Assembly (NCBI GenBank): GCA_963832375.1 | Contig: CAWHUA010000007.1 | Span: 37,069-101,068, forward strand | Direction of reading: 5' to 3' | Origin: Vicinamibacterales bacterium | Lineage (GTDB): Bacteria; Acidobacteriota; Vicinamibacteria; Vicinamibacterales; JAMQPK01 | Length of the DNA: 64,000 bases | The notes under the pieces: model-generated | Told to the model about the DNA's origin: nothing | The model's database searches: none | The model's input: only the letters and a program-made list of their open reading frames with translations | Position numbers and translations under genes: made by a program | Shown: one piece after another, positions 18,668-43,746 of the stretch | Position numbering within the stretch: the stretch's first letter is position 1 | Layout: each line of letters begins with the position of its first letter

Positions 18668-18723
18668 GACAGCGACAGTACCACGACGGCCGTGGCGGCG
18701 GCCGTCGTGTGACCAGGGGTGAA

Positions 18724-19560: not shown

Positions 19561-19817
19561 GACAGTCCTCCGTAGCTGACGATCCCGTTTCAACCGCCTT
19601 CAGGGTGCTGAACGACGGTGCCCGGCCGCACGGGCATTGACGACGTGCGGTGACGCTCACAACCGGTCGTGAGTGCCTGGAGACGCATTCGTCCCCGAAT
19701 CGCACAATCCTGCGGGAAAATGCGGGTCAACGCCCGCCGTCGGTCGCGCGATGCACGAGATGTACCCGCGTCCGGTGATCTGCGATACTATTAAAAGTTC
19801 AGAACTCTCCCCGACGT

Positions 19818-19893
19818 GGGCCAGTAGCGCAGTTGGGAGCGCGCATGAATGGCATTCATGAGGTCACCGGTTCGATCCCGGTCTGGTCCACCA
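19818..19893 (+). tRNA. tRNA-Ala (anticodon GGC), CCA encoded
   Basis: Hand-folded cloverleaf. Acceptor is GGGCCAG/CTGGTCC (one G-U pair), D arm GCGC..GCGC, anticodon stem CATGA/TCATG with loop ATGGCAT, and T arm ACCGG TTCGATC CCGGT. Confidence 0.9.
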
Positions 19894-21426
19894 ACCTTTC
19901 ATTTCCATCCTCGATCGTCCGCAAGTAGCTGAAGGCCGGTGCGGTTACGCGGGTTCCAACAAAGCCTTTTCCGTCGAACGCTATTCCGTCCGGAAAGAAG
20001 AGTTGTTGGAACCGCTGACGCTGTTCGAGTGACGCCTGCACCCAGAGGTCGCTGGCGCGCGGCAGAACGCGTTCTGCGAACGCCAGGATGCCCTCTACGT
20101 CGAGTTCATCGAGCTGGCCGGAGTGACGGTCGATCCGGGCGAGCGTGAGTTCCTCGCGTAGTTTTTCGGCGTGACGGTCGTAGGTCTCGATGTCGATCGA
20201 GCGCTCGAAGAGGAACGCCTCGTCCAGACGGTCCAGTTTGTCTTGAATGGCCTTCGCGGCTCGCTCGGCGTTCGCGATCTCCTCACGCACGGCTGCTTTC
20301 CGTGCCTTCCAGATCCGCAGCACGGATTCCTTCAGTAGGCGCATGTAGCCTGGCGTCGGCTGCAGCAGGGCGAGTTCGTCTGCGAACAGTCCTTCGAGCT
20401 TTGCCTTGGTCACGTTCACGGCCTGGCAACCAGGGCGGCAGTGGTAGTAGGCGTAGTACTCGCTGCGGCCCTTGGACCAGCTGCCGGTGAGGCCTCGACC
20501 ACAGGACTCGCAGCGCACGAAGGCGCGCAGTGGGAAGTCCGGGTGCGCCCGCTGCTGTGGCGTCGTGCTGGGCAGACGGCCGGACAGCACCGCCTGCACG
20601 CGGTAGAACAAGTCCTCTGAAATCAGTGGCTCGAAATCACCACGCTTCGCGCGGACGCCGTACTCGGGTACGTTCACGATGCCGGCGTAAAGCCGATTTC
20701 TCAGCAGCGTCCCAATCGCTTGGGACGTCAGCGGACGATTGCGGCGGTTCGTCAGGCCCCAGGCACGGGCCTGCTCGAGCACCTGCTGCTTGGTGAAACG
20801 CCCTGTTGCGTACTCCTCGAATACGCGGCGCACAATGGGCGCGCGTTCCGGGTCGAGCATCAGGCTCTTGCCAATCGCTCGCGGTGCATTCAGATAGCCG
20901 AGAGGCGCTAGGAACACCCACCGCCGAGCTCCAGCGCGGCCTTCATGCCGGCGCGGGTCCGGTCTGAGCGACAGTCGTTGTCGAACTGCGCGAACGCAGC
21001 GAGGACGCCTTCCATCAACTTGCTGGTGGAGGTGTCGTCGATCGGCTCCGTTGCCGACCGCAGCGAGATGCCCAGCGACTGCAGGTGAGAGCGGAGCGCG
21101 AAGTGGTCGTACTTGTCCCGCGCGAAGCGCGTCAGGTTGAACACGACGACGAAGTGCACGCGGCCCTTATTCAGGCGGCAGAAGGTGAGCAGGTTCTGAA
21201 GCTGGCTGCGATCCGTCGTCTTGGCGCTCTCGCCTTCCTCGTGGAAGCGATCGAGCACTTCGTACCCCTGGCGGCGGCAGTACTCCTCGCAGGCGCGCAA
21301 TTGCGTCGGCAGACTCAGATTCTCGGTCTGCTCCTTCGTGCTGACGCGAACGTAGATCACCGCGCCGACCATGGCTGGCAGCGTAGATCCATTCGCAGGC
21401 TCCGACAAGTGTCGTTTCCGAGGCAC
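19856..21426 (-). CDS. Large serine recombinase (integrase), 1-nt frame break near 20920; the 3' end reads into tRNA-Ala
   Basis: The N-terminal resolvase domain is VIYVRVSTKEQ (catalytic Ser) ...FARD. The recombinase/zinc-ribbon domain lies in the second ORF (RCESCGRG...YYHC) followed by a coiled coil. The junction ELGG/WVFLAPLGY needs one extra nucleotide. The last residues TGIEPVTS are antisense of the tRNA T-arm. Confidence 0.8.
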
Positions 21427-21431
21427 GACTT

Positions 21432-21644
21432 CTACTCAGGAATCCGACAGCCTTCTTGGTAGATCTCGACCACGATGCACGCCATCGTCTCCGCGTGTCG
21501 GCGGATCAACGCGACCTCCTGATCGGTCATCGACTCCGCTTCCTCTCCGAGCAGTTCCCGACAGCGCGCGATCGTGATCGGCTCCGGCCCGTCATCCGTA
21601 CGCTCGATGAACTCCATAGGGCGCTCCCAGCGGACGCAAGTCAT
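21432..21644 (-). CDS. Hypothetical small protein upstream of the recombinase
   Basis: 70-aa ORF (possibly starting at the internal MEFIERT). Its stop is 5 nt before the recombinase start, on the same strand. No family is recognised. Confidence 0.4.
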   Translation of the reverse strand: MTCVRWERPMEFIERTDDGPEPITIARCRELLGEEAESMTDQEVALIRRHAETMACIVVEIYQEGCRIPE

Positions 21645-22231
21645 GACGATTCGTGTTGTGCTGGATTGGGCGCTCCAGCGCGCCGGGTGTGCCGGCGCGC
21701 TGATGCCATTGAGCGCAGGTGCGGGCGTAACGCCGACAGCAATACGCGTGACGTGAGGTCGACGCGCTCATCGCGCGAGTTGATTCGCGCTATCGATCAC
21801 GGTGTTGTAGGGGAAGCTGCAACGTTGCCCTGAGGGCGGCGGCTGAAGCGCTCCGTGTCGGGTGCGACTGCGGAGAGGGTGCGCGATGGCACCGACAAGA
21901 TCTTCACGATACGTCTGCCGGCTGTTCGGGTCAATACTGAAAACGGCAACGAGCTTCCTCGGTCATCACATAAGTGCTACCTTCGAGCTGCGCGCAGGCG
22001 TCGTCAAGGCCGAAGCCCGAAGGGTCGAGCGCAGCGAGAGCCTTGACGAGGCCGAGCACAGCTCGACGCTGATCATGTGATGGCCGACGCACTGTGGTTA
22101 CCGTCGCAGAATGTCTGATGAACCTGCAGCGCGATCCACGCGAGATCCGCAAGGTGAACGCAGTGTCAATGCACGTGCAAACCGCGCGCACGTTGCTCGA
22201 ACATTCGGCGAGTGATCGCGACACCGACACC

Positions 22232-22304
22232 GGGGCGTGAGCAACCCCCCGGTGCCGTCCTCGGGACAGGACCCGTCGTAAAAGCGGGGGGTTGCTCACG
22301 CCCC
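22232..22304. repeat. Perfect 20-bp inverted repeat (stem-loop 1)
   Basis: GGGGCGTGAGCAACCCCCCG ... CGGGGGGTTGCTCACGCCCC with a 33-nt spacer. The spacer itself contains GTCC..GGAC. Confidence 0.8.
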
Positions 22305-22663
22305 CGCTCCATCAGTGACGCTCGCTAAGTGCGTTCCGTGCGCGGCACAGAACGCCGCGCTTGGTGTTCCACTTCTCAGCTTGCAAGTCGTCGGTGTGGA
22401 GAGACTTGCGAAAGGCAGCCATCGCAGACACCGGTTCATCGAGCATCGGTTTCGACTGACAACTTGGCGTTCCCGAACTGCGCCAACCACCGCTCTTTGT
22501 CGCGGCCCCCCTCGCGGCGTCAGCCGTTCCGAGTCGGAGTCTGAAAACCAGGGTGGGAAGACGCTCCGGAAAACGCCCCGGTTCAACTCCGAAATGCCAT
22601 CAGGATCTGACCGTCTTGCGGTGCGGTCTGTGCGCGGCGGCGGAGGCGATGACACCCTGCTAG

Positions 22664-22740
22664 CGTGGCGTGAGCGACCTCGGCTGTAGCCGCGGGCATG
22701 ATCACAGACGCGGTCAAATCTCGAAGTCGCTCACGCCACG
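22664..22740. repeat. Perfect 15-bp inverted repeat (stem-loop 2), related to stem-loop 1
   Basis: CGTGGCGTGAGCGAC ... GTCGCTCACGCCACG with a 47-nt spacer. It shares the GGCGTGAGC motif with stem-loop 1. Confidence 0.8.
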
Positions 22741-23138
22741 GTCACCTCTCTGGCGCGGCGATGACCGTGGCGACGGCGAGCGGTCGGCAACACACGCCGA
22801 CCGCGTGCTCGGGACGAGAAGCCTCCATCGCACATCTGCTTGCAGCGGCCGACAGAAGAACGTGAAGGCCGGTTGGCTCCAATCAGATCGGCGCGGGACA
22901 GCTCGGGAGAGGGGGAACACCCCGCGTTGGGCCCTGTTCCCCTCGACGCATTCCCTCGCGGCGTCAGCCGTTCGCCACGGCTAGCGCAAGCCAGGGGAGA
23001 GAGATGACGGCTGCTCAGCTCGCTTCTCAGGGCCTTGTCTTCCACTCTCAGAACGTTCACCAAGCTCGTCGACCTCCCGGTCTTAGGACAGTCTTAGGAC
23101 GGGTAGCAGGTGCTACGATCGGCCTCGAAGACGCTGCC

Positions 23139-23396
23139 ATGCCGACGTTTCCTGAATGGTGGAGCTGGAACCTTTCGTTCACCAGCCATGCCGAGTTGAG
23201 GATGGAGCAACGTGGTGTGACCGAGGTCGAGGTCCGCGCTATGCTGGAGAAGGCGACTGGGTTCCAGCCCAACGTTGTTGAGGGCAGATTCATGATTCAC
23301 GTCCGCCACCTGCAGAGCCTGTGGATCGTGATCGTCGAGCCAGATGCCGACGCCAAGCTGCTTGTCGTCGTGACCGTCTACGAGGTGTCCGAATGA
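23139..23396 (+). CDS. DUF4258-like protein (putative toxin component)
   Basis: 85 aa from ATG 23139. It has the motif SHAELRMEQRGVTEVEV typical of DUF4258. Its stop overlaps the next start (ATGA). Confidence 0.6.
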   Translation: MPTFPEWWSWNLSFTSHAELRMEQRGVTEVEVRAMLEKATGFQPNVVEGRFMIHVRHLQSLWIVIVEPDADAKLLVVVTVYEVSE

Positions 23397-23665
23397 CCGA
23401 GCGGTCGCTACAAGTCACTTACAGGAAGGGCCGGGCCTTCGCGGCGTATTTGCATCTGTCCCACGCGACGGGTGAGAAGAGCGCGAAGACCGTGGCGTCG
23501 CCCGACGGACTTCTCATCGTCGACTACGGCGCGACTGGTCGCCCTGTCGGAGTCGAGATCACATCGCCCCAGGCTGTCCCGCTTGAGCGGCTGAATCAGC
23601 TGTTGGCCGAACTCGATGAGGCGCCTTTGGCCGAACAAGACTACAAGCCGGTCCTAGCCGCATGA
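23393..23665 (+). CDS. DUF2283-like protein (putative antitoxin component)
   Basis: 90 aa. AAYLHLS...GLLIVDYGATGRPVGVEI is the DUF2283 pattern. It is translationally coupled to the upstream ORF. Confidence 0.55.
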   Translation: MTERSLQVTYRKGRAFAAYLHLSHATGEKSAKTVASPDGLLIVDYGATGRPVGVEITSPQAVPLERLNQLLAELDEAPLAEQDYKPVLAA

Positions 23666-23709
23666 ATTTCTGGCACGGAGTACTTGCCGCAGTCAGGACA
23701 AGGTGAGTC

Positions 23710-24372
23710 ATGGCCACTGATCGTTGCGCAATCGCGGCCTTGGCTGTCAGCATGTTCCTGCTCGGATCGGTAAGGGCGCAGGATCAACTCGTACCGTTTC
23801 GAGATCCAAGCCAGGGACAGTGGGGTTACAAGCGACCAGATGGAAGCATCGCGATTACCCCGCGTTATCTGGGCGCTGGTGTCTTTCGCGAAGGGCAAGC
23901 ACCGGTTAGAGATGGTGACGGGTTTGCGATGATCGATGGCACAGGACGGGTCGTGCAACGGATCGTGGTCGACTCCGTGTCGGCATCCGCGGTGCCTATC
24001 CCGCCTCCCGCCGACGAGTGCGCCTGGTCCGCATCAGCGCCATTCCCAAGTACCGGACTCCAGTGTTATGTCCGCCAATTGCGTGGATCAGCGGCAGTGA
24101 TCGGAGGCGAGATCACTGTCAGGCCGTCCGGTGGGGAGTCGTCGCGCTCCGCGGTGATCCTGAAGTTTCCGAGCGGCGTTGTGGTAGTTGAAGACATCGG
24201 CTACGAAGGTTTCACGAGGCGTGTGCTCCTTCCCGGTGTGAGCCCCAACCAGGCGCACCAGTGGCGACTGAAGCTTTATCCAGATCGAGCGGCAAAGGTT
24301 GGATGCTCGGAATCGTGGAAGGCCGGTGTCGTTCCGGGCGGTGCATTAATCGAGCAAGTTGCTGGGTGCTAG
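23710..24372 (+). CDS. Secreted WG-repeat protein
   Basis: 220 aa with a signal peptide (AIAALAVSMFLLGSVRAQ). It has WG-type repeats (GQWGYKRPDGSIAITPRY, GFAMIDGTGRVV). Confidence 0.6.
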   Translation: MATDRCAIAALAVSMFLLGSVRAQDQLVPFRDPSQGQWGYKRPDGSIAITPRYLGAGVFREGQAPVRDGDGFAMIDGTGRVVQRIVVDSVSASAVPIPPPADECAWSASAPFPSTGLQCYVRQLRGSAAVIGGEITVRPSGGESSRSAVILKFPSGVVVVEDIGYEGFTRRVLLPGVSPNQAHQWRLKLYPDRAAKVGCSESWKAGVVPGGALIEQVAGC

Positions 24373-24378
24373 CTGAGT

Positions 24379-24700
24379 TCACGCCCAACTCTGTCCGACT
24401 TGGAGCGTCTCAACCCGTCTGAGCCATTTGTCGATCAGGTTCCAACTGGCGAAAATCTGGTCCACCAACTCCAAGTCGTTGATTCTACACGACTGAAATC
24501 GCCTACCCACGCCGTAGATCGAACCGCTGTGACCAGGTCGTGAGGCTGCTGAAGTGCGTCAACTGTGCAGCAGTCTTCGAGCCGTTGCGTTCCATACCGA
24601 GTTCGGACTTTTGAGCCCCGGCTGCACGTCTTCGAACGACGCCCTCGGATGCGCGTCGAACAAACCGCCGCCTTCAGCCTCTCGGCCACCTCACCGCGCG
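24379..24700 (-). pseudogene. Serine recombinase 3' relic (several frame breaks)
   Basis: The tail INDLELVDQIFASWNLIDKWLRRVETLQVGQSWA-stop is at 24379-24480. Upstream fragments in other frames (AERLKAA, SQRF) parallel AERAAKA and RQRFQQL of the full-length copy. Confidence 0.55.
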
Positions 24701-24859
24701 CCTGTAAGTATGCGCCGCACCAACACTTGCGGATCTTGCGAATTTTCTTGGCTAAGGCGACTTCTCGATGATGCCGGTTTGAGAGCGCGGTGCTCGCAGA
24801 CAGTCACCCCCCGGAAATATTTTCTATCGTCGACGAGCATCTAGCAGAAGTGCCTTCGC

Positions 24860-26807
24860 TCAGCGGTAGAAAGGTTGCCAGGTGAGCCACCTGGGACCGT
24901 AATGGGGAACCGGAGCCCCCACTTCCAGGGCACCGAAGTCCGGGGCCTTTCCCGTGAAGACTTCGCTCACGGTTGGAATGACGACGCCGGCATCAACGAC
25001 TTTGCTCGTCGGCTTCAGTGTGAAGTTCAGATCCATCGCGTGATAGACGGCGTGACGCTGATCGGGGTTGGGAGGAGCGAGTCTCTCGAAGATGTCGAAA
25101 TCCACTTCCAGGCTGTGCGCCTCCTGGTCAGTGGCCGCCGCGAAATCCGAGAGCGTCTGGAACGTCTGCCAGTCATCGTCCGACGGTTCGTAGCGACGCT
25201 GCCCTTTCTTCGGGCCGAGAAACGCGTACTGATCCTTCACGCCTTTGTTCGGGCGATACCCGTTGTAGTCCGTGCTGAAATCGTCGGTCGCATTCGCGAG
25301 GCGGAGAACGCCGCGGCCGGGCGTGTCGCGGCCGAGGTACAGGTTGTTCCGGAAGTGCATATTGGCTGAAGGATCCCCGACGATGTGCTCTCCGATGATG
25401 GTGTTGTGGTAGACGAACAGCCCGGCTGGTTTCGCGCTGAACTTGAACGCCACTCCGCTCGGGACGTGATAGAGGATGTTGCGAATGAAATAGACGGGGC
25501 CGCCGAACGCGGGCTGTGCGCTATAGCCGCCGTGCGCCGCATTGACGCCGCGGTTGTTGAAGACGCGGACGTTATGGACGGCGCCGTCTGTCTCGACGAA
25601 ATCGTCGCCCATCATATGAATGTCGTTGTTGTAGATGTCGATGGACGAGGCGCGGCGTTCGGGATCCTGTTCGGGCGTGCCGTACGTGGAAATACCGATC
25701 CCATCGTGGAAATAGGCAATCGCATTGTGAGCAATGACGTGGCCGGGCCCGTACACCTTCACCGCGTAGTAGCTCTTGAGTAAATGGGAGCCGTATGGAC
25801 CCGCGCTGGCCCACAGCGGTCCGGTCCAGCCGACGAGACGAAAGCGATCGTCGCGCCCGAGGAACAGGTTGTCGGCGATGTAGAAATCGCTGGAGCCGGC
25901 GTACTCGGTCCACACACCCGCGCCCACATTTTCGAACCGACAATTCTTCACCGCGAGACCGACTGCGCCGAGAACCTCTTTCTGACCGGCGAAAATGGCG
26001 ACGTCGGTGTTGCGGAACGTGAGGCCCTCGAAAATGTGATGGCTCGAGGCCATGACGTCGAACAAACGCGCATTGCCGTCGCCATCGAAGATGACTTCAC
26101 CGTCGCCGCCCCCTTTGATGGTGATGGGCTTCTCTTTGGTGCCCTTGAGCGTCAGCGACATTGAACCGTCGAACGGCGTCATCATCGGATCGACGTAGTT
26201 GAACCGTTCTGGTTTGTAGAGGCCGACGTGGACGACGATGGTGTCGCCGGGTCTGGCGCGGCGCTCCCACACGACGCTCCAATCGCCGAGACCCGCGCCG
26301 TAGTACGCCTGGAGGACGCTGGTGAAGCTGGGCTCGAGTCTCTCGCCCTTGTGGTCTGGCGGGTAGACGTGGAGGATGCGCCCTTCGTTGGACGGCATGG
26401 GTTCGGTACGCGTGGTGACCCTGGCGACGTGGGTCGTCTGACCGGTGGCGCCGTCGGGGTCTGTGAGCTGGAACCGGCACTCGGTACTCGGTTCCGGGTA
26501 AGAGATTCAGGATGGAGCCGGCGAAGCCGTCGGGAACGGTGTAGTCGAGATTCTCGCGGCGGCGGTAGACGTTCTCGCCGCCAATCCGAACCAGCGGGAG
26601 CGCATTGCGCCACGCTGTTTCGCCAACCGCCCGGAATTGCACGCTGACGCTCGCATTGCGGTTGGCGTCGCCGTTGATCGCCCATTCGAACCCGGCGTTC
26701 AGCAGCGTCGGGTGCTCGACATGGAAACGGCCGGCCTCGGTCGAGTTCTGGACCTGAAGAGCGGCGGCCAGAAGCAGCGTCGATGTAAAGAGGCTCATGG
26801 CCGGCAT
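24860..26807 (-). CDS. Secreted FN3-like + right-handed parallel beta-helix protein; 1-nt frame break at 26483
   Basis: It has a signal peptide (MPAMSLFTSTLLLAAALQ) and an N-terminal domain ending LLPGTEY. The next frame continues ECRFQLTDPDG...MPSNEGRILHVY, then beta-helix-like repeats (NNDIH, FNNRGVN, YHNTIIG, FRNNLYLG). There is an RBS before ATG 26807. Confidence 0.65.
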
Positions 26808-26938
26808 CTTACACCTTCCATCGACTGTGCCCTGGCGCGAGGGCTCAGGCGTCCAGAGTTGATCCGCGATGGCCATCGGTTGCTCTCTCAGGGAATCGGA
26901 CATACGCGACAGTCCGCTGTGGGACGCGCCGACAATCG

Positions 26939-26952
26939 GTTGGTGGTCCAGA
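26939..26952. repeat. Inverted near-copy (13/14) of the att core
   Basis: GTTGGTGGTCCAGA compared with the reverse complement of the core, GTTGGTGGACCAGA. It lies in the divergent intergenic region. Confidence 0.3.
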
Positions 26953-27063
26953 TTGGTCCCAGCATGCACCAGGCTTGTGGTATACAGTGTGCCCGGCAAT
27001 GCTAGTGCAGTGGAATTCAAGGGCTGCGCCACGAAAGTGATCGCGCAACAAGGAGTGTCACGT

Positions 27064-30321: not shown

Positions 30322-30344
30322 GAGCGTATGCTCGACGCGACGGC

Positions 30345-30626
30345 ATCGGGGCCGCGAGCTGTTCTATCTCGACGCGTCGAATGTGCTCACCGCTGTGCCG
30401 GTCAGCACATCCGAACCGACGATCAGCATCGGCAGTCCGGCGAAGGTGTTCGACACCAAATATGCTGAGCCAAATCCCTCGCCGCCATTACGACGTGTCG
30501 GCCGACGGCCAGCGATTCCTCGTGCTCAAAGCCAGCGCAACCGGCGATCCGAACGCGACGCCAGTCAGCATGGTCCTCGTCGAGCACTGGTTTGAGGAGT
30601 TGAAGCAGCGTGTGAATGGAAAGTGA
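30345..30626 (+). pseudogene. 3' fragment of a TolB-like beta-propeller (kinase-family C-terminus), frameshifted
   Basis: GRELFYLDASNVLTAVPVS...KVFDTKYAEPNPS is followed, in another frame, by RHYDVSADGQRFLVLKASATGDPNATPVSMVLVEHWFEELKQRV. This parallels the ends of the kinase paralogs (YDVSADGQRFLMMK...VVQNWLAELRRLV). Confidence 0.7.
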
Positions 30627-30649
30627 AACGAAGCCATTCTTCCGCGGGT

Positions 30650-33967: not shown

Positions 33968-36667
33968 TGACGCTGATTCCGGGTACGCGCCTCGGCCCGT
34001 ACGAGATTGTCGCCGCTCTCGGCGCCGGCGGGATGGGTGAGGTGTACCGCGCCCGCGACACGAAACTCGATCGCGCGGTCGCGATCAAGATCCTCCCCGA
34101 ATCCTTCGCGCACGATCCGGAGCGGCTCGCCCGCTTCGAGCGGGAAGCGAAGACGCTCGCCGCGCTGAATCACCCCAACATCGGCGGCATCCACGGCCTT
34201 GAAGAATGCGAGCGGCGTGCACCGCCCTCGTGATGGAGTTGGTCGAGGGCGAGGATCTGGCGCAGCGCATCGCGCGAGGCGCGATCCCGCTCGACGAGGC
34301 GCTCGCCCATCGCGCGGCAGATCGCGGACGCGTTCGAGGCCGCGCACGAGCAAGGGATTATCCACCGCGATCTCAAGCCAGCCAACGTCAAGGTGCGGCC
34401 CGATGGCACGGTGAAGGTGCTGGATTTCGGCCTGGCCAAGTCGCTGGAGCCGGCTGGCGTCGTCGTCGAGCGTCTCGCAGTCACCGACGATCACGACGCC
34501 CGCGATGACTCAGGTAGGGTCATTCTGGGCACCGCCGCCTACATGGCCCCGGAGCAGGCGAAGGGAAAGCCGGCGGACAAACGCAGCGACATCTGGGCGT
34601 TCGGCTGCGTGCTCTACGAGATGCTGACCGGCGCGCGCGCCTTTGCCGGCGAGGATGTCAGCGACACGCTGGCGGCCGTGCTGCGGGGTGAGCCCGATTG
34701 GCGCTCGTTGCCGGCCGAGACACCCGCGTCGATTCGGCGATTGCTGCGGCGCTGTCTCGAGAAGGATCGGAAGCGCCGGCTCTCGGATCTCGCCGATGCG
34801 CGGCTGGAGATCGAGGACGCCTTGACGCCGCCGGCGTCCGACACACCGCCGATGCCAACAGCCGGTACGCGCGAACGCATGGCGGCGCGCGGCAATGATT
34901 GCTGCCGCCGCTCTTGTCGTCGGCGGCGCGGCGCGGGCATCGCCGTCTGGATCGCGATCCGCCCTGCTCCGGCGCGGATGGTGCGAACGTCGATCCAGAC
35001 GTCGGGCGCAACGGCGCTCGTGACGAACCCGGGAGCGGCAGGCAGTCTCGCCATCACGCCCGACGGCTCACGGATCGTGTACACCGCGGCCGGCCAGCTC
35101 GTCGTGCGTCGCCTGGATCAATTCGAGCCGGACGCGCTCACTGGTCTGGGCTCGCCCACGCAACCGTTCATCTCCCCCGACGGTCAGTGGGTGGGATTTT
35201 TCGACGGGATGGTTCTCAAGAAGGTGGCGATTACCGGCGGGCCGCCGGTGACGGTGGTCCAGGACAATACCCCCAGCGGCGGGCCCTTGGGCGCCACCTG
35301 GAGTGCCGATGGCACGATCGTGTACGCAGGGGCCATCGGTGGTGGATTGAGACGGGTCGCGGCCGCGGGCGGTCAGGCCGAAACGCTGACGACGCCCGAC
35401 CGAGCGCAAGGTGAGGTCAGACACGTCTGACCCGAGTTTCTGCCGGACGGGCGGGCGTTGCTCTTCACGATTTTTTACGCGATTCCGGGGCCCGAGGGCG
35501 CCCGGATTGCGCTGTTGGACTTGGCGACCGGCGCAACGATCGTGCTGCTCACTGGGACCCACGCGCGGTATCTGCCATCGGGCCACCTTGTGTATGGAAC
35601 GGAGGGCACGCTCCGCGCGGTCGCGTTCGACCTCGAGCGGCGGGCCGTGGTCGGAGCCCCAGTGCCGCGTTCTCGCCCCGGTAGCCAGGCACCAGAGCCA
35701 GGCACGTATGAGTACGACGTAGCCGACAATGGGACGATCGTGTACCTGGCGGAGAACATCGCGTCGCCGGCCACACGCACGCTGGTGTGGGTCGATCGGC
35801 AAGGCGGTGAGACGCCGCTCGGCGCCGAGGCCCAGCCTTACGTCCACCCCCGGCTGGCGCCCGACGGCACGCGCGTGGCCGTCCTCAATGCCGGAAATAT
35901 CTGGATCTGGGATCTCGCGCGCGCGAGGCTGACCGCCGGAACGCTCGACGGTGGCGACCATTTCGATCTGGACACCCGACAGTGCGCGTCTCATCTTCAG
36001 CTCGATCCGCGGCGGCGGCGGCGCGAATCTCTACCTGCAGGCGGCCGACGGCACCGGGACGGTCACGCGGCTGACCGACAGCCCGAATACCCAGCACCCG
36101 ACCGGCTTCACATCTGATGGCACGCAGGTCGTCCTCAACGAATCGACGCCCACCCAGCAGGGAGACATCCGGCTGCTGACGCTGACCCCGACGCCGCAGG
36201 TGACGCCGCTCGTCGAGACGCGCTTCGACGAGCGGGGCGGCGTCGTGTCCCCGAACGGCCGCTGGCTGGCGTACGAGTCCAACAGGTCAGGTGCGTACGA
36301 AATCTACGTGCAGCCCTTTCCCGTCGTGGATGGCGGTCTGTGGCCGGTCTCGACCGCCGGCGGATCGCAACCGCTCTGGGCGCGGAGCGGGCAGGAACTG
36401 TTCTATGTGGCGCCCGACGACGCGTTGATGACGGTGGCGGTGGAGGCGCGGGGATCAGTCTGGTCGGCCGCCGCGCCGGCCCGACTGCTCGAGGGACGGT
36501 ACTTCAGCGGTGGGCGGGGGACCACGGTGCGCCAGTATGATGTCAGCGCGGACGGGCAGCGATTCCTGATGATGAAGGAAGAAGCGAGAGACAACGACGC
36601 GGCTCCGACGATCAACGTCGTGCAGAACTGGCTAGCGGAGCTGAGGCGGCTGGTGCCGGTGAACTGA
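33967..36667 (+). pseudogene. Kinase-propeller paralog K2, multiply disrupted
   Basis: It has the same architecture as K1. Frame breaks lie near 34222, 34306, about 34450, 34517 and 35961, and there is an in-frame TGA at 35428-35430 (GEVRHV-stop-PEFLPDG). It shares start/stop overlaps with K1 and K3. Confidence 0.75.
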
Positions 36668-39351
36668 TGATGCTGATGCCGGGTACGCGCCTCGGCCCGT
36701 ACGAGATCGTCGCGGCTCTCGGCGCCGGCGGGATGGGCGAGGTCTATCGCGCGCGCGATCCGCGGCTCGGACGCGACGTGGCGGTCAAGGTTCTCCCGCC
36801 TGCTTTTTCAGCCGATCCTGAACGCCTCACGCGGTTCGAACAGGAAGCTCGAGCGGCCGCGGCGCTGAACCACCCCAACATCCTCGCCGTCTACGACGTC
36901 GGCCAGCATGACGGCTCGCCCTACATCGTCTCGGAACTGCTCGAGGGGGAGACACTTCGGGAGCGACTCGCCGCTGGGGCGCTCCCTGTGCGTAAAGCGC
37001 TGGAGTACGCCGTCCAGATCGCGCAGGGCCTCGCGGCAGCTCATGAGAAGGGGATCGTCCATCGGGATCTGAAACCCGAGAATGTCGTTGTCACTGGCGA
37101 TGGGCGCGTGAAGATTCTCGACTTCGGGCTTGCCAAGCTGACGCAGGCCGAGCCAGTAGAGGCGGGGATTAGCGCTCTGCCGACGACGCCCCCGCACACG
37201 CAGGCCGGCATCGTGCTCGGCACGTTCGGGTACATGTCGCCGGAGCAAGTGCGTGGACTTGTGGCAGACCATCGCGCGGACATCTTCGCGCTTGGTACGC
37301 TGCTTTACGAGATGTTGTCGGGCCAGCGGGCGTTTCGAGGCGACACCGCAGCCGATTCGATGACGGCGATCCTCAAGGAGGACCCGCCCGACCTCCCGGT
37401 CGCAGAGCGGCGGATCCCGCCCGCGCTCGATCGCATCGTGAATCGATGCCTGGAAAAAAATCCCGCGAACCGCTTCCAGACGGCTGTCGATCTGACGTTC
37501 GCCATCGAAGGGATTTCGTCGCAGTCTGATGCGTTTCGGGCGCGCGACGGACGATTCAGCGGCCGCCCGGCCAGGCGCGAGCTCGCCGCGTGGTCGGGCG
37601 TCGCGATCGTGTCGGTGTTCGCCGCGGCACTCGGCTGGAATGCGCTCGACCGCGCGACTCCGGACGCCGAGCGCTCCGTGCACGCGACCTTGTTGCCGCC
37701 CGAAAACTGGACTCTGACCGGTACCAACCCTGCGGCACGGTTGGCCGTGTCGCCCGACGGCTTGCGCCTGGCCTTCGTGGCCAACGGGCCGGACCGGCGA
37801 TCAATGCTATGGGTCCGGCGTTTCGATTCGCTCGCGCCACAGCCCCTGCAGGGCACCGAGGGCGCGACGAGCCCGTTCTGGTCGCCCGACAGCCGGTTTC
37901 TGGGCTTCTTCGCGTCCGGCAAGCTCAAAAGGATCGACGCGTCGGGCGGGCCGGCCGTGACCTTGTGCGATGCACCCTATACGAGAGGGGGCGCAGTTCC
38001 GGGCGGAGCGTGGAATCGGGACGGCGTCATTCTCTTCGGCAGTTCTGGTGCAAGTCTTCAACATGTGTCCGCTTCCGGTGGAATACCGGCAAGAGTAACG
38101 ACTCTTCAAGGTCAGGAGACCAGTCATCAGCTGCCGTTCTTCCTGCCGGATGGCCAACACTTTCTCTTTCAGGTCGCGATCGGGAGCAGCGCCAGCGCGG
38201 GAGCGGTGGGGTCCGAGATCCGAATCGGGTCTCTGGACTCCCCCGAGGTCCGCCCGCTGATGAAGGGTACTTCCCAGGCGATGTACGCGGGTCACCTGCT
38301 CTTCGTGCGCGACCAGACGCTCATGGTCCAGGCGTTTGATGCCCAGCGTCTCGAGCTCTCTGACGAGCCTGTCCCGCTGGCCGAACAGATTGTGAGCAGT
38401 CCGAGCGGGGGCAGCACCTTTTCAGTGTCGCAGAACGGGGTCCTCGTCTACCAGGCCGGGCCTTCGGCACTTTCTCCCTCCAGGCTCGTCTGGATCGATC
38501 GCGAGGGGAAAGAGGTCGCCACGCTCGGTGACGTAGCCGCCTACGGCGACGTTCAGCTGTCCTCGGATGGCAGGCGGGCGGCGGTGAGCCTGCTTCAGGC
38601 TGAGAGCAACACGCGTGACGTGTGGATCTTCGATCTGGCGCGTGGGGTTCCGGCGCGATTCACGTTCGACGCCGCCAACGATCTGGCCGCCATCTGGTCA
38701 CCTGGCGATGATCGTGTGGTCTTCAGCTCAGCCCGCGCAGGGCGTCTGGACCTCTACGAGAAGGCGTCGACGATGGTGGGCGATGAAACGATCCTTCTGG
38801 CCGACAGCGCAGACAAGTATCCCCTGAGTTGGTCTCGCGACGGACGCTTCATCCTGTACTCCGTCATTGAAGGTCGGAACCAGGATCTTTGGGCGCTGCC
38901 TCTCTTCGGAGATAGGAAGCCATTTCCTTTTGCGCGGTCGACATTCTCCGAGACCGCGGGGCAGTTCTCCCCCAATGGAAAGTGGATCGCGTACCGCTCC
39001 GACGAGTCGGGACGGCCCGAAATCTGGGCCGGGCCGTTTCCGGGACCAGGAAGGCGAACGCAGATCTCGACCGAGGGAGCGGGAGCCGGATATCCACGAT
39101 GGGACCGCGACGGCAAGGAGCTCTACTATCTGGATGCCGCTTCCAGGCTGATGGCTGTTCAGGTGAGCGCCGATGGCTCAGAACTTCAGATCGGTACTAT
39201 CCGACCACTCTTCGAAACCCGAGCATCGTTTCGACTCCGCTCTTCGTACGACATCTCCCCCGACGGGCAGCGCTTCCTGATCAATAGCAACGTTGGCGAG
39301 GCGGCGCCAATTACGCTGGTGGTCAACTGGGCGGCCATGTTGAAGAAATGA
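36667..39351 (+). CDS. Ser/Thr protein kinase - TM - beta-propeller, paralog K3 (intact)
   Basis: 894 aa with kinase motifs ([27 protein letters not shown]), a TM segment (WSGVAIVSVFAAALGW) and PD40-like blocks. Confidence 0.9.
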   Translation: MMLMPGTRLGPYEIVAALGAGGMGEVYRARDPRLGRDVAVKVLPPAFSADPERLTRFEQEARAAAALNHPNILAVYDVGQHDGSPYIVSELLEGETLRERLAAGALPVRKALEYAVQIAQGLAAAHEKGIVHRDLKPENVVVTGDGRVKILDFGLAKLTQAEPVEAGISALPTTPPHTQAGIVLGTFGYMSPEQVRGLVADHRADIFALGTLLYEMLSGQRAFRGDTAADSMTAILKEDPPDLPVAERRIPPALDRIVNRCLEKNPANRFQTAVDLTFAIEGISSQSDAFRARDGRFSGRPARRELAAWSGVAIVSVFAAALGWNALDRATPDAERSVHATLLPPENWTLTGTNPAARLAVSPDGLRLAFVANGPDRRSMLWVRRFDSLAPQPLQGTEGATSPFWSPDSRFLGFFASGKLKRIDASGGPAVTLCDAPYTRGGAVPGGAWNRDGVILFGSSGASLQHVSASGGIPARVTTLQGQETSHQLPFFLPDGQHFLFQVAIGSSASAGAVGSEIRIGSLDSPEVRPLMKGTSQAMYAGHLLFVRDQTLMVQAFDAQRLELSDEPVPLAEQIVSSPSGGSTFSVSQNGVLVYQAGPSALSPSRLVWIDREGKEVATLGDVAAYGDVQLSSDGRRAAVSLLQAESNTRDVWIFDLARGVPARFTFDAANDLAAIWSPGDDRVVFSSARAGRLDLYEKASTMVGDETILLADSADKYPLSWSRDGRFILYSVIEGRNQDLWALPLFGDRKPFPFARSTFSETAGQFSPNGKWIAYRSDESGRPEIWAGPFPGPGRRTQISTEGAGAGYPRWDRDGKELYYLDAASRLMAVQVSADGSELQIGTIRPLFETRASFRLRSSYDISPDGQRFLINSNVGEAAPITLVVNWAAMLKK

Positions 39352-39397
39352 CACGTGCAGGCCAGGTAAGGCGGGTAGGTCAAGTAGGTCGAAGCCG

Positions 39398-39857
39398 ATG
39401 TCGCTGACAATGGGAACTCGCCTCGGGCCGTACCGGAATCGTCAGCGCCATTGGCGCCGGCGGGATGGGCGAGGTGTACCGCGCGAGCAAGATCCTGACC
39501 GATACCTTCGCGCACGAGACTGGACGAAGCGAGTTTTACCTGGCGCCGTTTCAGCGGCACGGCGCAAAGGTGCCGATTTCGAGCGCAGGTGGCGGGTCAC
39601 CGAGATGGCGGCAGGACAACAACCAGATCTTCTATCTTGATGAGAACACGCTGATGGTTGCTGCGGTCCGTGGCGGCGACTCGGAGATCGACGTCGGCGA
39701 CGCCCGGCTCCTGTTCCAGACGCGAATGAGCAACAGATCCTTTTCTTATGCGGTGACGGAAAACGGTCAGCGCTTCTTGATGAACAAGCCGTCGGAAGAG
39801 ACCTCACCGAAACGCATCACGCTCGTCGTGAACTGGCCCGCGATGTTAAAGGAATGA
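39398..39857 (+). pseudogene. Internally deleted kinase-propeller remnant
   Basis: The first ~30 codons of a kinase ([25 protein letters not shown], frame break near 39437) are joined to the last propeller blade ([13 protein letters not shown]...[13 protein letters not shown]...[13 protein letters not shown]). Confidence 0.75.
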
Positions 39858-42623
39858 GCCTCACAGCCGGCGCCAGGCTCGGTCCGTACGAAGTCTTGGG
39901 CCCTCTCGGCGCAGGGGGCATGGGCGAAGTCTACCGGGCGCGCGACACGAGGCTTGATCGCCGCGTGGCCATCAAGGTCCTGCCGTCGGCCCTGGCCGCC
40001 GACCCGCAGTTGCGCGACCGCTTCGAACGCGAGGCGCGCGCGATCTCGTCGCTCAATCATCCGCACATCTGCACACTGTTCGACGTCGGACATCAGAGAC
40101 GGCGTCGACTTCCTCGTGCTGGAGTATCTCGAAGGGGAGACAGTCGCCGAACGCCTGGCCCATCGCGGCGCGCTGGATCCGAACGAGGCTCTGAAGATCG
40201 CCATCGACATCTGCGACGCGCTCGACAAGGCGCACCGCTCGGGCATCGTCCATCGCGATCTCAAGCCTGCGAACGTCATGCTGACCAAGGCGGGCGCGAA
40301 ACTGCTCGACTTCGGCCTCGCGAAAAAGGCCGCGCCGGCCGTCGCGACGACGGCGTCGTCGATGTTGCCGACCACGCCGCCGAACCTGACGGCGCAGGGC
40401 ACCATCCTCGGGACCTTTCAGTACATGGCGCCCGAACAGGTCGAAGGGCTCGAAGCGGACGCGCGCACCGACATCTTCGCGTTTGGTGCGGTCCTCTTCG
40501 AAATGCTCACCGGCAAGAAAGCGTTCGAGGGGAGAAGCCAGGCGAGCCTGATTGCCGCCATTCTCAAGCACGAGCCACCTTCGATTGTGAGTGTGCAACC
40601 GCTCACCCCGCTGGCGCTGGATCGCGTCGTCAGGAAATGTCTCGCCAAGGACCCTGATGCGCGCTGGCAGAGCGCGAGAGATCTCGAAGACGAACTGAAG
40701 TGGATTGCGGAAGCGCCTTCGGAGACGCGAGCGTCGGCGCCTTCGAGTCCTCGCCGACTGGCTCCCGCGCGCTCGGCGTTGATAGTGGCCGGACTGCTGA
40801 TTGCCGCTGTCGCCGTTGCTCTCGGCCTGTGGCGCGTGACGCGTGCGCAAACGGCCTCGCCGGTCGCGCGCTTCCTTATCAGCGTGACGCCCGCCGACCG
40901 GTTATCGAGCATCAGCCCGGACGAGCGCAGGTTCATCCCTCATCGTCCGAGCCGAACGGCCATGGCCTGGTCGCCCGACGGGCAGCGGCTTGTTTTCAGC
41001 GCCATTCGCGGCGATAAGCAGTAACTGTACATGCGCGCGATTGATCGGCTCGAGGCCGAGCCGATAGCCGGTACTGAAGACAGCGACAGCCCCTTCTTTT
41101 CGTCAGACGGCCAGTGGGTCGGCTTCTGGAAGGGTGGGGAGTTGAAGAAGGTGCCCGCTGGCGGCGGGCCCGCGGTCACGATTTGCGAAACTGCTCCAGT
41201 CTCCGGCGCGAGCTGGGGATCGAACAACCTCGTGGTGTTTGCACGCGGAGGAGGAGGGCTGTGGCAAGTGTCGGGCGACGGGGGCACGCCACAACCGTTG
41301 ACAACTCTCGATGCAAATAACGGAGAAAGGAACCACGTCTTACCGCACGTTCTGCCGGGTGGCAAGGCCGTGCTTTTCACCATTCGGAAGGCCGCAGGAA
41401 CTCGCCCGACGGCCTGGGACGATGCGCAGATCGTGGTGCGGTCTCTGGTGAGCGGCGACCAAACGACTCTCATTGAGGGAGGCGCCGACGCTCGCTACGT
41501 GTCCACGGGACACCTGGTCTATGTACGGCAGGGAACGTTGATGGCGGTGCCGTTCGACCTCGACCGCCTCGCGCTTACGGGCGCTGCGGTCGGGATCGTG
41601 AACAGCGTGATGCAGGCGGTCAATACGCCGAGCGGCGCCATCGAAACTGGTGCGGCGCAGTTCAGCGTCTCTGCTTCAGGGACGCTCGTCTACGTCTCAG
41701 GAGGTATGTTCCCGGAAGGCGAGCGATCGCTGATCTGGGTGGACAGGGCGGGCGTGATCCAGTTGCTTCCCGCCCCGCCAAAACCGTACTTAGGGCCGCG
41801 GTTATCACCGGACGGACAGCGAGTCGCGGTCTTTACACAGGGGAGGGACGCAGAGGTCTGGATATACGATCTCGTTCGCGAAGACTTAACAATGTTCACG
41901 ACCACCCGGCCCAGGCGAGGTACCCGCCCGGTGTGGACGCCAGATGGGAAGCGGTTGACATTTGGCGCTGGGAATCTGTTGTGGAAACCCGCAGATGGAT
42001 CGGGTGTAGCGGAGCCGCTGACCACGAGTGAGGATGTTCAACTGCCTGAATCCTGGTCACCTGATGGAAAGACATTGGCGTTCTTTCAGGGCGGAACACT
42101 CGGCCGGGGAGACATCTGGATGCTTTCCCTCGCGGATTCTGATCGGACGGCGCGGCCCTTTGTGCAGACAGCGGCCAACGAGCGATGGCCGGACTTCTCG
42201 CCGGACGGCCGCTGGCTCGCCTACGCTTCGGACGAATCGGGTCGCGACGAGGTCTATGTGCAGCCGTATCCCGGTCCTGGAAGCCGACACCAGATCTCAG
42301 CGCGAGGCGGGACCCAGCCGGTCTGGGCGCGGAATGGTCGAGAGTTGTTCTATACCGTTCCGGATTCCACAGCGACGGTTGACTTCAGCAGAATGATGGT
42401 GGTGGACGTCACGACGGCTCCGACCTTCACCGCCGGAATCCCGAAGCCGCTGGAGAGCGTCGTCCGTCTCACCAATCCCATCAGAGGCTATGACGTCACC
42501 GCCGATGGCAAGCGGTTCATCACCGTTCGTGACAACGAACGATCGCCCGAACCTCCGCCGGCCCACATGATCGTCGTCCAAAATTGGCTAGAGGAGCTGA
42601 AACTCCTCGTGCCGACGAAATAA
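39854..42623 (+). pseudogene. Kinase-propeller paralog K4, frame break at 40097 and in-frame TAA at 41022-41024 (possibly a functional split)
   Basis: The kinase reads ...DVGHQ then, in the next frame, [11 protein letters not shown]...HRDLKPANV. After the TM segment the ORF ends GDKQ-TAA. An ATG 6 nt later (41031) opens the 530-aa propeller ORF. Confidence 0.7.
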
Positions 42624-42738
42624 GATGGCACTATTCGACCAGCTGCCTGTGAGACCTCGACCGGAACAGACTGCCTGGTCCGGTATCTGGAGGCTTGCAA
42701 TGAGACGCGCGCGACGTAACGCGAGACGCACGGGCTTG

Positions 42739-42767
42739 CTTAGCTAAGCTAAGCGCGCCTAGCTAAG
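42739..42767. promoter_or_regulatory. Candidate vapBC operator
   Basis: The palindrome CTTAGCTAAG is followed by CTAAG and a second TAGCTAAG, 12-40 nt upstream of the antitoxin ATG. Confidence 0.35.
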
Positions 42768-42779
42768 ATCGTAGAGACC

Positions 42780-43013
42780 ATGGCGAAGCCTCATTCCATC
42801 CATGCCGCCAAGACCCAGCTCTCGCGCCTGGTCGAACGCGCGGAACGCGGCGAGGAAGTCGTCATCGCGCGTGGATCGACACCCGTCGTGCGTTTGACCC
42901 GCCTGCGGGTAGAACGGCCCGCCCGCCGTTTCGGCGCCATCCGCGGCCGCGTCCGCGTCACGCGGGCCTTCTTCGAGCCGCTCCCAGAATCCGAGATCAA
43001 GCGCTGGGAGTAG
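42780..43013 (+). CDS. Type II antitoxin (Phd/YefM-like, PIN-associated)
   Basis: 77 aa. AKTQLSRLVERAERGEEVVIARGSTPVVRL is the typical N-terminal antitoxin pattern. It lies directly upstream of the PIN toxin. Confidence 0.75.
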   Translation: MAKPHSIHAAKTQLSRLVERAERGEEVVIARGSTPVVRLTRLRVERPARRFGAIRGRVRVTRAFFEPLPESEIKRWE

Positions 43014-43016
43014 TCG

Positions 43017-43403
43017 GTGCGACTGCTGCTGGACACTCTTGCACTTCTCTGGTGGCTGGATGACGACCGCCGGTTGTCACTGAAGGCACGCCGTGCGATA
43101 GCCAATCAGTCGAACACGATCCTCGTCAGCGCCGCCTCCGCGTGGGAGATCGCCACAAAGGCGCGCCTCGGCAAGCTGCCCGGTGCGACAGATGTGGCGG
43201 CGGACGTTGCGGCGTGCGTCGCTGGCCAGGGTTTTCTGCCGCTCGACATCACGATGCTCCACGCACAGAAGGCGGGCCGACTGCCTGGCGAACACAGAGA
43301 CCCGTTCGACCGAATGCTCATCGCGCAGAGCCAGATGGAGGACATCGCGCTCCTCAGCGACGACGAGGCTTTCGACAACTTCGACGTCCGCCGATTCTGG
43401 TAG
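43017..43403 (+). CDS. vapC: PIN-domain toxin
   Basis: 128 aa with acidic PIN residues in LLLDT, SAASAWEI, DPFDRMLIAQS and LLSDD. The start is GTG. Confidence 0.8.
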   Translation: MRLLLDTLALLWWLDDDRRLSLKARRAIANQSNTILVSAASAWEIATKARLGKLPGATDVAADVAACVAGQGFLPLDITMLHAQKAGRLPGEHRDPFDRMLIAQSQMEDIALLSDDEAFDNFDVRRFW

Positions 43404-43404
43404 C

Positions 43405-43746
43405 TCACTCGACCGGCCCAGTCTCCTGCCGCAGGGCTTCCAGGCAGCGCATCCACCGGTGGATCCGGTTCCAACTCGCGAACATCTGGTCCACCAACCT
43501 CCGCTCATGATCCAGGCGGAGGTTGCCCACCATAGCGCCGACCTGTCCGCCGAAGCGCAACGCGCGAAGGTGGAAGGCGCGACGGTGGGCCCCCTCCTTG
43601 ATGAACGAGCTACGGTTGGCAGGCCAACCTTCGCCCTGTTTGAAGGCGAAGGTTCGTGCCACAAACAACAGGCGAAGTTCCACACGCGAAGGGTGTCCAC
43701 ACAGCGCCCCGAACGAAGGCGAGGTGAGCCAATACATGTCGCGCAT
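43405..43746 (-). pseudogene. Serine recombinase 3' relic
   Basis: 113-aa ORF ending ERRLVDQMFASWNRIHRWMRCLEALRQETGPVE. The upstream part weakly parallels the recombinase C-terminal region (LLFVARTFA vs ILAFAERVL; RRAFHLRALRFGG vs RQRFQQLFFPDGIAFDG). Confidence 0.55.

Follow-up and report, generated by a model that had tools for sequence, protein, structure and literature searches.

The stretch of DNA analyzed here (the window, 64,000 nt of contig CAWHUA010000007.1 from a Vicinamibacterales bacterium) contains a single tRNA gene as judged by ARAGORN and Rfam, tRNA-Ala(GGC), whose 3' end is followed by direct repeats, displaced recombinase gene ends, and differing sets of cargo genes. The segment 19882-43500 is very probably a three-unit integrative array at the 3' end of this tRNA gene, built by a family of large serine recombinases (LSRs) that would carry their attachment site, attP, in the 3' end of their own coding sequence. 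The principal features are the tRNA, four copies of a short core, three coding tails, the recombinase gene, and the units E1, E2, and E3:

19818-19893, plus strand: tRNA-Ala(GGC) (ARAGORN; Rfam RF00005, 62 bits), the putative integration target (B arm and core), regenerated intact
19882-19897, plus strand: core copy 1 (putative attL), the 12 3'-terminal nt of the tRNA followed by ACCT
24456-24469, plus strand: core copy 2, at the E1/E2 junction
30709-30724, plus strand: core copy 3, at the E2/E3 junction
43485-43500, plus strand: core copy 4 (putative distal attR), end of the array
24379-24455, minus strand: tail 1, displaced 3' end of the recombinase open reading frame (ORF), IFASWNLIDKWLRRVETLQVGQSWA and a stop; putative P arm of attR
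30650-30708, minus strand: tail 2, MFASWNRIASWLRQIDGLQ and a stop
43405-43484, minus strand: tail 3, MFASWNRIHRWMRCLEALRQETGPVE and a stop
19856-21426, minus strand: LSR gene of E1, with a 1-nt frameshift near 20915 and a 3' end that runs through the core into tRNA antisense
19882-24469: E1, 4.6 kb, adjoining the tRNA; LSR, orf70, hairpin backbone, DUF4258 pair, weak WG-repeat protein, tail 1
24470-30722: E2, 6.3 kb; type B left end, beta-helix gene, TonB-dependent receptor gene, tail 2, without an LSR
30723-43498: E3, 12.8 kb; type C trailer, GIY-YIG fragment, LSR relic, kinase-PD40 array, Phd/PIN pair, tail 3

The 14-mer TCTGGTCCACCAAC, consisting of the last 12 nt of the tRNA plus AC, is found exactly and on the same strand at 19882, 24456, 30709, and 43485, in agreement with an earlier note on this DNA, which had placed repeats of the tRNA 3' end at three further sites in the same orientation. 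Copies 1, 3, and 4 extend to a 16-mer (ending in CT), and copies 3 and 4 have ~45 nt in common in all. When up to two mismatches are allowed, the window contains six matches to the core against 0.33 expected from shuffled sequence, a number reached by none of 100 shuffles. The minus-strand tails to the left of each internal core were translated (LVDQIFASWNLIDKWLRRVETLQVGQSWA, LVDQMFASWNRIASWLRQIDGLQ, and LVDQMFASWNRIHRWMRCLEALRQETGPVE, each followed by a stop) and have the consensus LVDQ[IM]FASWN.I..W[LM]R..., confirming the conserved tail and stop that the earlier note had described. The decayed recombinase-body homology that it had seen right of the internal copies was recovered at 31001-31195, whereas 24470-24700 and 43501-43746 turned out to be trailer modules, described below. 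A fourth unit had also been proposed beyond 43500, but no further tail or convincing core is present there in the window, and the array therefore comprises three delimited units.

A fifth copy of the core with one mismatch (TCTGGACCACCAAC) lies inverted at 26939-26952 on the minus strand, between the divergently oriented beta-helix and TonB-dependent receptor genes of E2; by a rough estimate, ~0.02-0.05 such copies would be expected by chance. One other same-strand match with one mismatch to the 11-mer was found near 6380, left of the tRNA.

The E1 recombinase was assembled from two minus-strand ORFs, 20908-21426 and 19856-20917, between which the frame is broken by a 1-nt deletion (after ELG and before RWVFLAPLGY). 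Its product contains Resolvase (PF00239, 7e-34), Recombinase (PF07508, 2e-12), and Zn_ribbon_recom (PF13408, 6e-7) domains by Pfam, together with the catalytic serine motif AVIYVRVSTKEQ and the sequence YVRVSTKEQ, and it matches the PDB sequences 3guv and 3bvp as well as the A118 integrase (4kis/6dnw, at 3e-7). AlphaFold2 returned block-mean predicted local distance difference test (pLDDT) values mostly of 72-93 over the Recombinase and zinc-ribbon domains, and, as regards the coiled-coil insertion expected in the zinc-ribbon domain, it predicts long helices at residues 357-406 and 411-436 of P0048. Judged by its domain content, the enzyme is a bona fide LSR, and intact relatives are 92-93% identical to it. 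At the core the ORF reads L-V-D-Q and then continues antisense to the tRNA T-arm, within which it terminates (...NERLVDQTGIEPVTS and a stop), giving the protein a tRNA-antisense C-terminal ending, ...LVDQTGIEPVTS. At the DNA level, the codons R-L-V-D-Q coincide with the acceptor 3' strand of the tRNA, the CCA, and ~4 nt of trailer; this identity block is 16 bp long and reads TCTGGTCCACCAACCT. A consequence absent from the earlier note follows from this arrangement, namely that the attachment site appears to lie within the recombinase ORF and that integration would swap the C-terminus of the enzyme for tRNA-antisense codons.

A recombinase family fused to tRNA genes

A protein search with the reconstructed LSR yielded 2,198 proteins with E <= 1e-10 among 8,000 candidates scored. 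About 95 of the best 120 homologues end in a tRNA-antisense peptide, either LVD[QL]TG[IVF]EPVTS before the stop or another version (ASPTGFEPVF, VSPEGIEPSTNRLRVCCSA...), and the SWN tail ends 3 of the 120. From a scan of one genome per species, which produced 270 relatives, the best 80 loci were analyzed, mostly from Vicinamibacterales/Acidobacteriota metagenome-assembled genomes (MAGs). The 3' end of the LSR gene overlaps a convergent tRNA gene by ~35 nt in 54 of these 80 loci, the targets being tRNA-Ala-GGC (35), Lys-CTT (14), Glu-TTC (3), Lys-TTT (1), and Val-CAC (1). The LSR is near full length and aligns as a single segment in 66 of the 80, and copies of tail plus core occur 3.9-11.3 kb from the tRNA in 18 loci. 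Elements at tRNA-Lys have their own 11-nt core, which is followed by the same tail.

Arrays comparable to that of the window were also found. On one contig (L030 and L038; L numbers designate the loci and contigs compared), three LSR elements stand in a row and end at tRNA-Ala, and body-core-tail junctions are present within arrays. The LSR nearest the tRNA is the most intact and the distal ones are truncated or frameshifted in L030/L038, L008, L009, L015, L060, and the window, which fits the entry of new elements on the tRNA side. Several copies of tail plus core lie ~0.9 kb apart in L017 (328-3015, where two tails are identical) and L071 (1983-2875); these are either cargo-free mini-units or a tandem duplication of attR. 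A variant core, TGGTGGCCCAG, encoding VAQ in place of VDQ, always occurs with a distinct tail, IFPRWNPLTSWMRQIE.F..AA before the stop (L035 at 11530, L030 at 18106, L038 at 1830, and L026 at 5038). It differs at tRNA position 70, part of the Ala identity pair G3:U70, and may be the attP of a sublineage or belong to another target.

Evidence for the tail as the native C-terminus comes from viral contigs. The LSRs of L085 and L087, 47% identical to the query, have full tails (...GLVDLLTPSWNPTLAWLRHL...AA and a stop); no tRNA is present in the retrieved stretch of up to 10 kb on each side, and a search with the core motif gave no second att-like site. In L086, a relative of these two, the LSR is fused to tRNA-Ala, and in L084 an LSR 94% identical has the order body-core-tail followed by a tail-fibre gene. 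The SWN-tail form in the viral contigs is a candidate for the free form, and the simplest reading of the sequences is that attP appears to lie within the last codons of the LSR gene.

The tail also shows signs of constraint on its DNA. Among 67 distinct tails, the Ser codon of SWN is AGT in 58 of 58 cases, the residue otherwise being Arg (AGA or AGG), and the Asn codon is AAC in 66 of 67. Since the predicted genes of the window have a GC content at third codon positions of ~0.72-0.94, this near-invariance indicates selection on the DNA itself. Read in tRNA sense, the motif GTTCCAACT of the tails resembles the T-loop sequence GTTCGATCC, and its distance from the core exceeds that of the T-loop in the tRNA by exactly 5 bp. 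For the LI integrase, the motif bound by the zinc-ribbon domain is at bp 16-24 of the attP half-site and at bp 11-19 of the attB half-site (Rutherford et al., PMC3783163). By this spacing rule, the central dinucleotide would be CA at 19889-19890 (tRNA C72-A73), with position 1 at 19888; the distance to this dinucleotide is then 10 nt for GTTCGATCC in the tRNA and 15 nt for GTTCCAACT in the tails. The centre so predicted falls exactly halfway along the identity block of 16 bp (19882-19897).

A course of integration may be proposed from these features. The ORF of the free-form LSR would end in ...ERLVDQ-x3-SWN-x4-W-LR...AA and a stop. Recombination inside the 16-bp block, presumably catalyzed by the LSR with crossover at C72-A73, would join the LSR body to the tRNA, and the ORF would then end in TGIEPVTS and a stop, encoded by tRNA-antisense codons; eight such codons would be gained, while the tail of 19-26 codons and a second core would be left at the far end of the element. 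New elements would presumably enter on the tRNA side of the array, E3 having come first, E2 next, and E1 last as the newest; insertion at the distal attR, or the transfer of a composite in one event, could produce the same arrangement.

We put forward only tentatively the more far-reaching idea of a self-editing serine integrase, which seems possible rather than likely. In this proposal, the SWN codons AGTTGGAAC (always AGT-TGG-AAC) would double as an attP arm mimicking the T-loop, and the C-terminal helix would be covalently swapped for eight tRNA-antisense residues, converting an integration form into a prophage form that behaves differently; the swap would then alter the activity of the enzyme. 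If true, this would constitute a built-in directionality or copy-control switch, and recognition of the T-loop, which is invariant, would let the family hop between tRNAs for Ala, Lys, Glu, and Val with a change in nothing but the 11-16-bp core.

Cargo, trailer modules, and site occupancy

Besides the LSR, cores, and tails, the units and their right flank contain the following features:

21432-21644, minus strand: orf70 of E1, 70 aa, directly upstream of the recombinase (conservation of position by tblastn)
21645-22943, minus strand: conserved backbone of E1, no consistent reading frame, hairpin of ~150 nt at 21950-22100
23004-23665, plus strand: E1 cargo, DUF4258 protein (Pfam PF14076, 4.6e-6) and partner ORF, toxin-antitoxin-like
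23710-24372, plus strand: E1 cargo, 220-aa protein with a weak WG-repeat match below the Pfam cutoff
24470-24662, plus strand: type B trailer module at the left end of E2, first ~60 nt conserved
24860-30321: E2 cargo, beta-helix gene (minus) and TonB-dependent receptor gene (plus), by Pfam; a block 96.7% identical in L102
24860-26798, minus strand: right-handed beta-helix protein, probable start 26798, apparent frameshift near 26487
27064 (probable start, taken from the sequence), plus strand: TonB-dependent receptor
30725-30856, plus strand: type C trailer module of E3, palindromic units with core-like motifs
30857-30940, plus strand: N-terminal fragment of a GIY-YIG gene, 48% identity over 27 aa to the intact gene of L035
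31001-31195, minus strand: recombinase relic, aa 196-260 of the family
31229-42623, plus strand: E3 cargo, array of Ser/Thr-kinase and PD40 beta-propeller genes (Pfam), several fragmented
42780-43403, plus strand: E3 cargo, Phd/YefM antitoxin and PIN-domain toxin (domain matches)
43501-43640, plus strand: type C trailer right of core copy 4, hairpin AACCTCCGC...GCGGAGGTT, then GGTTGGCAGGCCAACC

By tblastn, orf70 of E1 has counterparts in the equivalent position, before the start of the recombinase gene, in most of 95 loci. It has no match in Pfam or PHROGs and is, by its conserved position alone, a candidate directionality factor (RDF) or regulator. The backbone at 21645-22943 retains 72-84% nucleotide identity in many elements, and neither coding frames nor domains were found in it by Pfam, PHROGs, or cross-locus tblastn. 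Its imperfect hairpin at 21950-22100 (minus strand) has homologous counterparts in 38 other loci, situated ~520-830 nt upstream of the recombinase, and is 91-97% conserved at the nucleotide level, above the recombinase gene itself. RNAalifold gives 28 pairs, 12 of them with compensatory double changes, and no Rfam match was obtained; three U-G wobbles are kept, and these solely on the recombinase-sense strand, suggesting that the structure forms in RNA or single-stranded DNA. The DUF4258 pair recurs in other elements, and for the 220-aa WG-like protein no homologue was found in the other loci compared.

The cargo of E2 and E3 is of a different kind. The beta-helix gene of E2 encodes a signal-peptide-like N-terminus and, on a by-eye reading, changes frame between GTEY and ECRFQLTDPDG, as a pseudogene or a 1-nt assembly error would. 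Full-length kinase-PD40 genes of E3 lie at 31229-33967 and 36667-39351, and broken kinase or propeller copies at 33967-36667 and 39954-42623, which suggests decaying tandem paralogues or assembly frameshift errors. All main ORFs of the array were scanned, and none encodes a tyrosine integrase.

Recombinase relics were sought by tblastn with the LSR and by a hidden Markov model (HMM) built from 25 family members, applied to six-frame translations. The segment 31001-31195 is 58% identical to the recombinase over 65 aa (E 1.6e-16 by tblastn, 1e-16 by the family HMM) and by this similarity is what remains of the integrase of E3. To the right of copies 2 and 4, E was > 0.2 although no more than 24 translated frames were searched, and both 24470-24860 and 43501-43920 were ruled out as relics by the two methods.

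Across loci, three sequence types follow a core on its right, namely LSR body, type B, and type C. Type B has ~60-70 nt conserved between contexts and at 24470 comprises a 7-bp hairpin with the loop GATTCTA and then an inverted GATCGAACC; it was considered as a tRNA-like or known RNA, but no credible Rfam match was obtained and the hairpin loop is unlike an anticodon loop. The type B module of E2 is 97.6% identical to L102 and L170, where it stands directly after tRNA-Ala. Type C consists of palindromic units (AACCTCCGC...GCGGAGGTT) with core-like GTCCACC(G/A)TAGC motifs and often precedes an 84-aa GIY-YIG gene pointing away from the tRNA, of which L035 has an intact copy (PF01541, 1e-10). The possibility that its palindromes are a genome-wide repetitive extragenic palindromic element was rejected, as in the window they are confined to the two trailer sites.

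A metagenome scan with the tRNA T-stem, acceptor, and CCA joined to the start of type B or C matched at least 120 contigs, and a true tRNA-Ala directly precedes the trailer in at least 94 contigs among the matches listed (type C at least 84, type B at least 10). The emptiest sites begin with type C: in L178, 124 nt separate the CCA from the csp gene, and L186 has 0.95 kb. The best reading of type C is therefore as the trailer native to the tRNA (B'), and the type C copy that follows core copy 4 probably represents the chromosomal flank native to the tRNA 3' end. That copy (43501-43640) is 93% identical to the core-trailer junction of L194, a tail-core site without a tRNA, and the genes right of 43500 encode CBS-like, HxlR, ankyrin, epimerase, and DCC1-like proteins. 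L216 has one element of 5.7 kb, bordered by tRNA-Ala on one side and by a type C/GIY-YIG flank on the other.

LSR relics that abut a trailer are cut at differing residues, at aa 260 in the window, aa 106 in L015, aa 275 in L143, aa 314-315 in L159 and L102, and aa 297 in L168, where the CCA is only 46 nt away. The LSR relic is abutted by a small GIY-YIG gene, or by a bare type C hairpin, in the window (30857-31195), L015 (2586-3020), L159, L143, L102, and L168. From such joints it seems that native tRNA-trailer DNA has repeatedly taken the place of the recombinase 3' end. In a one-sided replacement of this kind, an old attL would be exchanged for tRNA plus trailer DNA through homology in the tRNA and an illegitimate join inside the LSR. 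The resident integrase would thereby be inactivated and an attB-like site regained, and the presence of type C twice in the window would be accounted for. Arrays with LSR-body junctions indicate that this step is not obligatory.

Comparison with relatives, as the earlier note had recommended, revealed differently filled sites at tRNA-Ala, with presence of the elements being sporadic and L165, L102, L178, and L186 all differing from the window. Depending on the contig, 0.12-9 kb separate the tRNA from a conserved csp block. Over 6.5 kb of left flank (window positions 13242-19898), L165 shares 92% identity with the window, and its tRNA is followed by a type C trailer, not by the LSR. In contig L102, the E2 of the window follows tRNA-Ala directly (24456-24662 at 97.6%, 24851-30355 at 96.7%), whereas the chromosomal flank of that contig matches the window at only ~71%. 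It follows that E2 moves horizontally and can be separated from E1. In L102 the block lacks tail 2 and adjoins a GIY-YIG fragment and LSR relics instead.

The orientation of the tRNA-Ala hotspot relative to two conserved blocks, csp/NTP-transferase (window 2.8-16.5 kb) and the block starting at 57990, is opposite among genomes. This emerged from comparison of window positions 15241-19817 and 43500-63900 with L016, L017, L023, L026, L126, L177, L178, L186, L199, and L205, and suggests that the segment with the tRNA has undergone inversions; in some genomes, the tRNA has the gene at 55374-56276 as its 5' neighbour. A conserved 220-nt block at 15241-15462 proved to be a plain cold-shock protein gene.

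Competing accounts of the array

Serial integration at tRNA-Ala(GGC) by related serine-recombinase elements, the central claim of the earlier note, was upheld by the tail-core-body logic that extends through the family, by arrays elsewhere, and by variable occupancy. Other histories could leave a similar arrangement. Only E1 might have integrated, E2 and E3 being chromosomal or patchwork DNA placed between the scars of mostly deleted elements by deletions, by one-sided homologous replacement anchored in the tRNA, or by inversions. This account is rather unlikely, but it gains from the trailer modules with which E2 and E3 open, the same that directly follow a true tRNA-Ala in those 94 or more contigs, and from the E2 block of L102, which is without tail 2 and abuts a GIY-YIG fragment and LSR relics. 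Cargo-free mini-units of 0.8-1.3 kb in L023, L026, and L017, kinase-PD40 genes found elsewhere both in and outside elements, and a region that rearranges, as the inverted tRNA segment shows, point the same way. It has to contend with the direct core borders and distal tail of every unit, which are the formal signature of integration, with an E2 that is 97% identical at the same tRNA in a host with a 71% flank, and with the LSR relic that E3 keeps in the expected position and orientation.

A single entry of one 23.6-kb composite island, whose internal tail-core junctions were inherited from arrays in earlier hosts, is distinctly unlikely. Stepwise entry is a better fit to the most intact LSR being on the tRNA side in several arrays, and L102 has E2 without E1 while L165 has neither beside the tRNA. 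Excision between non-adjacent cores would nevertheless give composite circles, tails are shuffled among LSRs ~90% identical as this account predicts, and no intermediate state with the same flanks was found among the relatives sampled. A fourth possibility, that the repeats arose by local tandem duplication or as repetitive elements derived from tRNA, with the recombinase a mere neighbour such as a domesticated invertase, is highly improbable and already disfavoured: the cargo differs in each unit, the core is always in frame in the same codons of a conserved tail, the same fusion occurs at five tRNA species with matching cores, the gene is unsplit in viral contigs, and in the window the core is confined to these sites. 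What such a view has to offer is the local proliferation of tRNA-end-like sequence in the type C palindromes GTCCACC(G/A)TAGC and the four tails ~0.9 kb apart in L017.

Several points count against the three-unit array itself or against parts of its proposed mechanism. The LSR of the window is frameshifted and could be a pseudogene or reflect an assembly error, the latter because the beta-helix gene and some kinase genes look frameshifted too; E2 and E3 have no working integrase, and their mobility must be in trans or past. Canonical LSRs refuse attL-like targets (PMC3783163), yet entry at tRNA-core-P' needs one, and the occurrence of type C twice in the window (30725 and 43501) is not predicted by simple serial integration. 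Among the right half-sites compared (LSR body, type B, and type C), no mirror of the left-arm motif was found; they have in common only (A/T)C and a few pyrimidines, and the crossover anatomy therefore stays hypothetical. AlphaFold models the tail as helical but with a pLDDT of 41-51, from which no structural role can be argued, and docking of the tail was uninformative at these values. No tail-core-body circle was found and no terminal overlaps in L001-L003, L001 being an array with two cores. An exact-protein look-up of the MscS neighbour gave no record of an empty site in the same strain, and the L165 contig ends 218 nt after the tRNA.

Relation to known integrases

Serine integrases were described in a 2014 survey as not known to target tRNA genes, and integrative and mobilizable elements with site-specific serine recombinases insert within protein-coding genes and disrupt them, according to a 2017 review (PMC5704250). 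The word tRNA is absent from the main text of a large LSR survey (PMC10083194), and the Islander class of genomic islands at tRNA genes contains tyrosine integrases only (PMC4383910). In literature that was incomplete, no prior description was found of serine integrases at tRNA genes or of attP in a serine integrase gene, and island databases may list such cases.

The family shares with canonical LSRs (A118/LI, TP901-1, Bxb1, phiC31, and SPbeta SprA) the order Resolvase, Recombinase, zinc ribbon, the N-terminal domain of TP901-1 and the C-terminal domains of A118 being among its PDB sequence matches. In the left arm, the putative zinc-ribbon motif would be 5 bp nearer the predicted centre in attB than in attP, as modelled for LI integrase, and the right arms compared gave no mirror of it. 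Unlike in these enzymes, the target is a tRNA 3' end that is regenerated by the element's own sequence, attP would lie inside the integrase ORF with a 16-bp identity block, an extra C-terminal region of ~75 aa plus the tail is present, and the arrays imply tolerance of varied right half-sites. Relatives among cultured phages were considered, but the best reach ~25% identity and do not cover the C-terminal region.

The closest parallels are found among tyrosine recombinases. In Myxococcus phage Mx8, attP reportedly lies within the coding sequence of the integrase (IntP/IntX), and integration at a tRNA gene is said to replace the C-terminus, yielding a prophage form with another tail; the enzyme is reportedly a tyrosine recombinase with arm-type sites and the excisionase Uoi. 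Both systems would have attP in the integrase gene, a tRNA target, and an exchanged C-terminus, but here the enzyme is a serine recombinase and ~19-26 residues would be swapped for 8 tRNA-antisense residues. SSV1-type archaeal integrases are tyrosine recombinases with attP in the integrase gene and a tRNA target, in which the ORF is split by integration and usually inactivated, whereas in the present family the body keeps all recognizable domains and gains a stop codon in the tRNA. Islands targeting tRNA genes (Islander/TIGER) likewise show an intact tRNA, displaced 3' fragments in direct orientation, stacked cargo, and variable occupancy; the integrase of the elements described here is of the serine family, and the displaced fragments sit in a conserved coding tail. 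In the integration-dependent immunity of mycobacteriophage BPs, attP is said to lie in the repressor ORF and integration by a tyrosine integrase to alter the C-terminus and behaviour of the repressor, while here the split gene is the serine integrase itself.

A mostly intact, large family aimed at several tRNA 3' ends would fill a gap between the two integrase superfamilies and would be the serine equivalent of the tyrosine system Mx8 IntP/IntX. It also accounts for recombinase ORFs ending in ...GIEPVTS, a common annotation oddity, and the locus illustrates how small islands build up and decay at one tRNA. Self-regulation by a recombinase that rewrites its own gene becomes testable. Serine integrases are prized tools for genome engineering, and in the Vicinamibacterales, which are dominant in soil and hard to manipulate, these conserved targets would provide natural attB/attP pairs.

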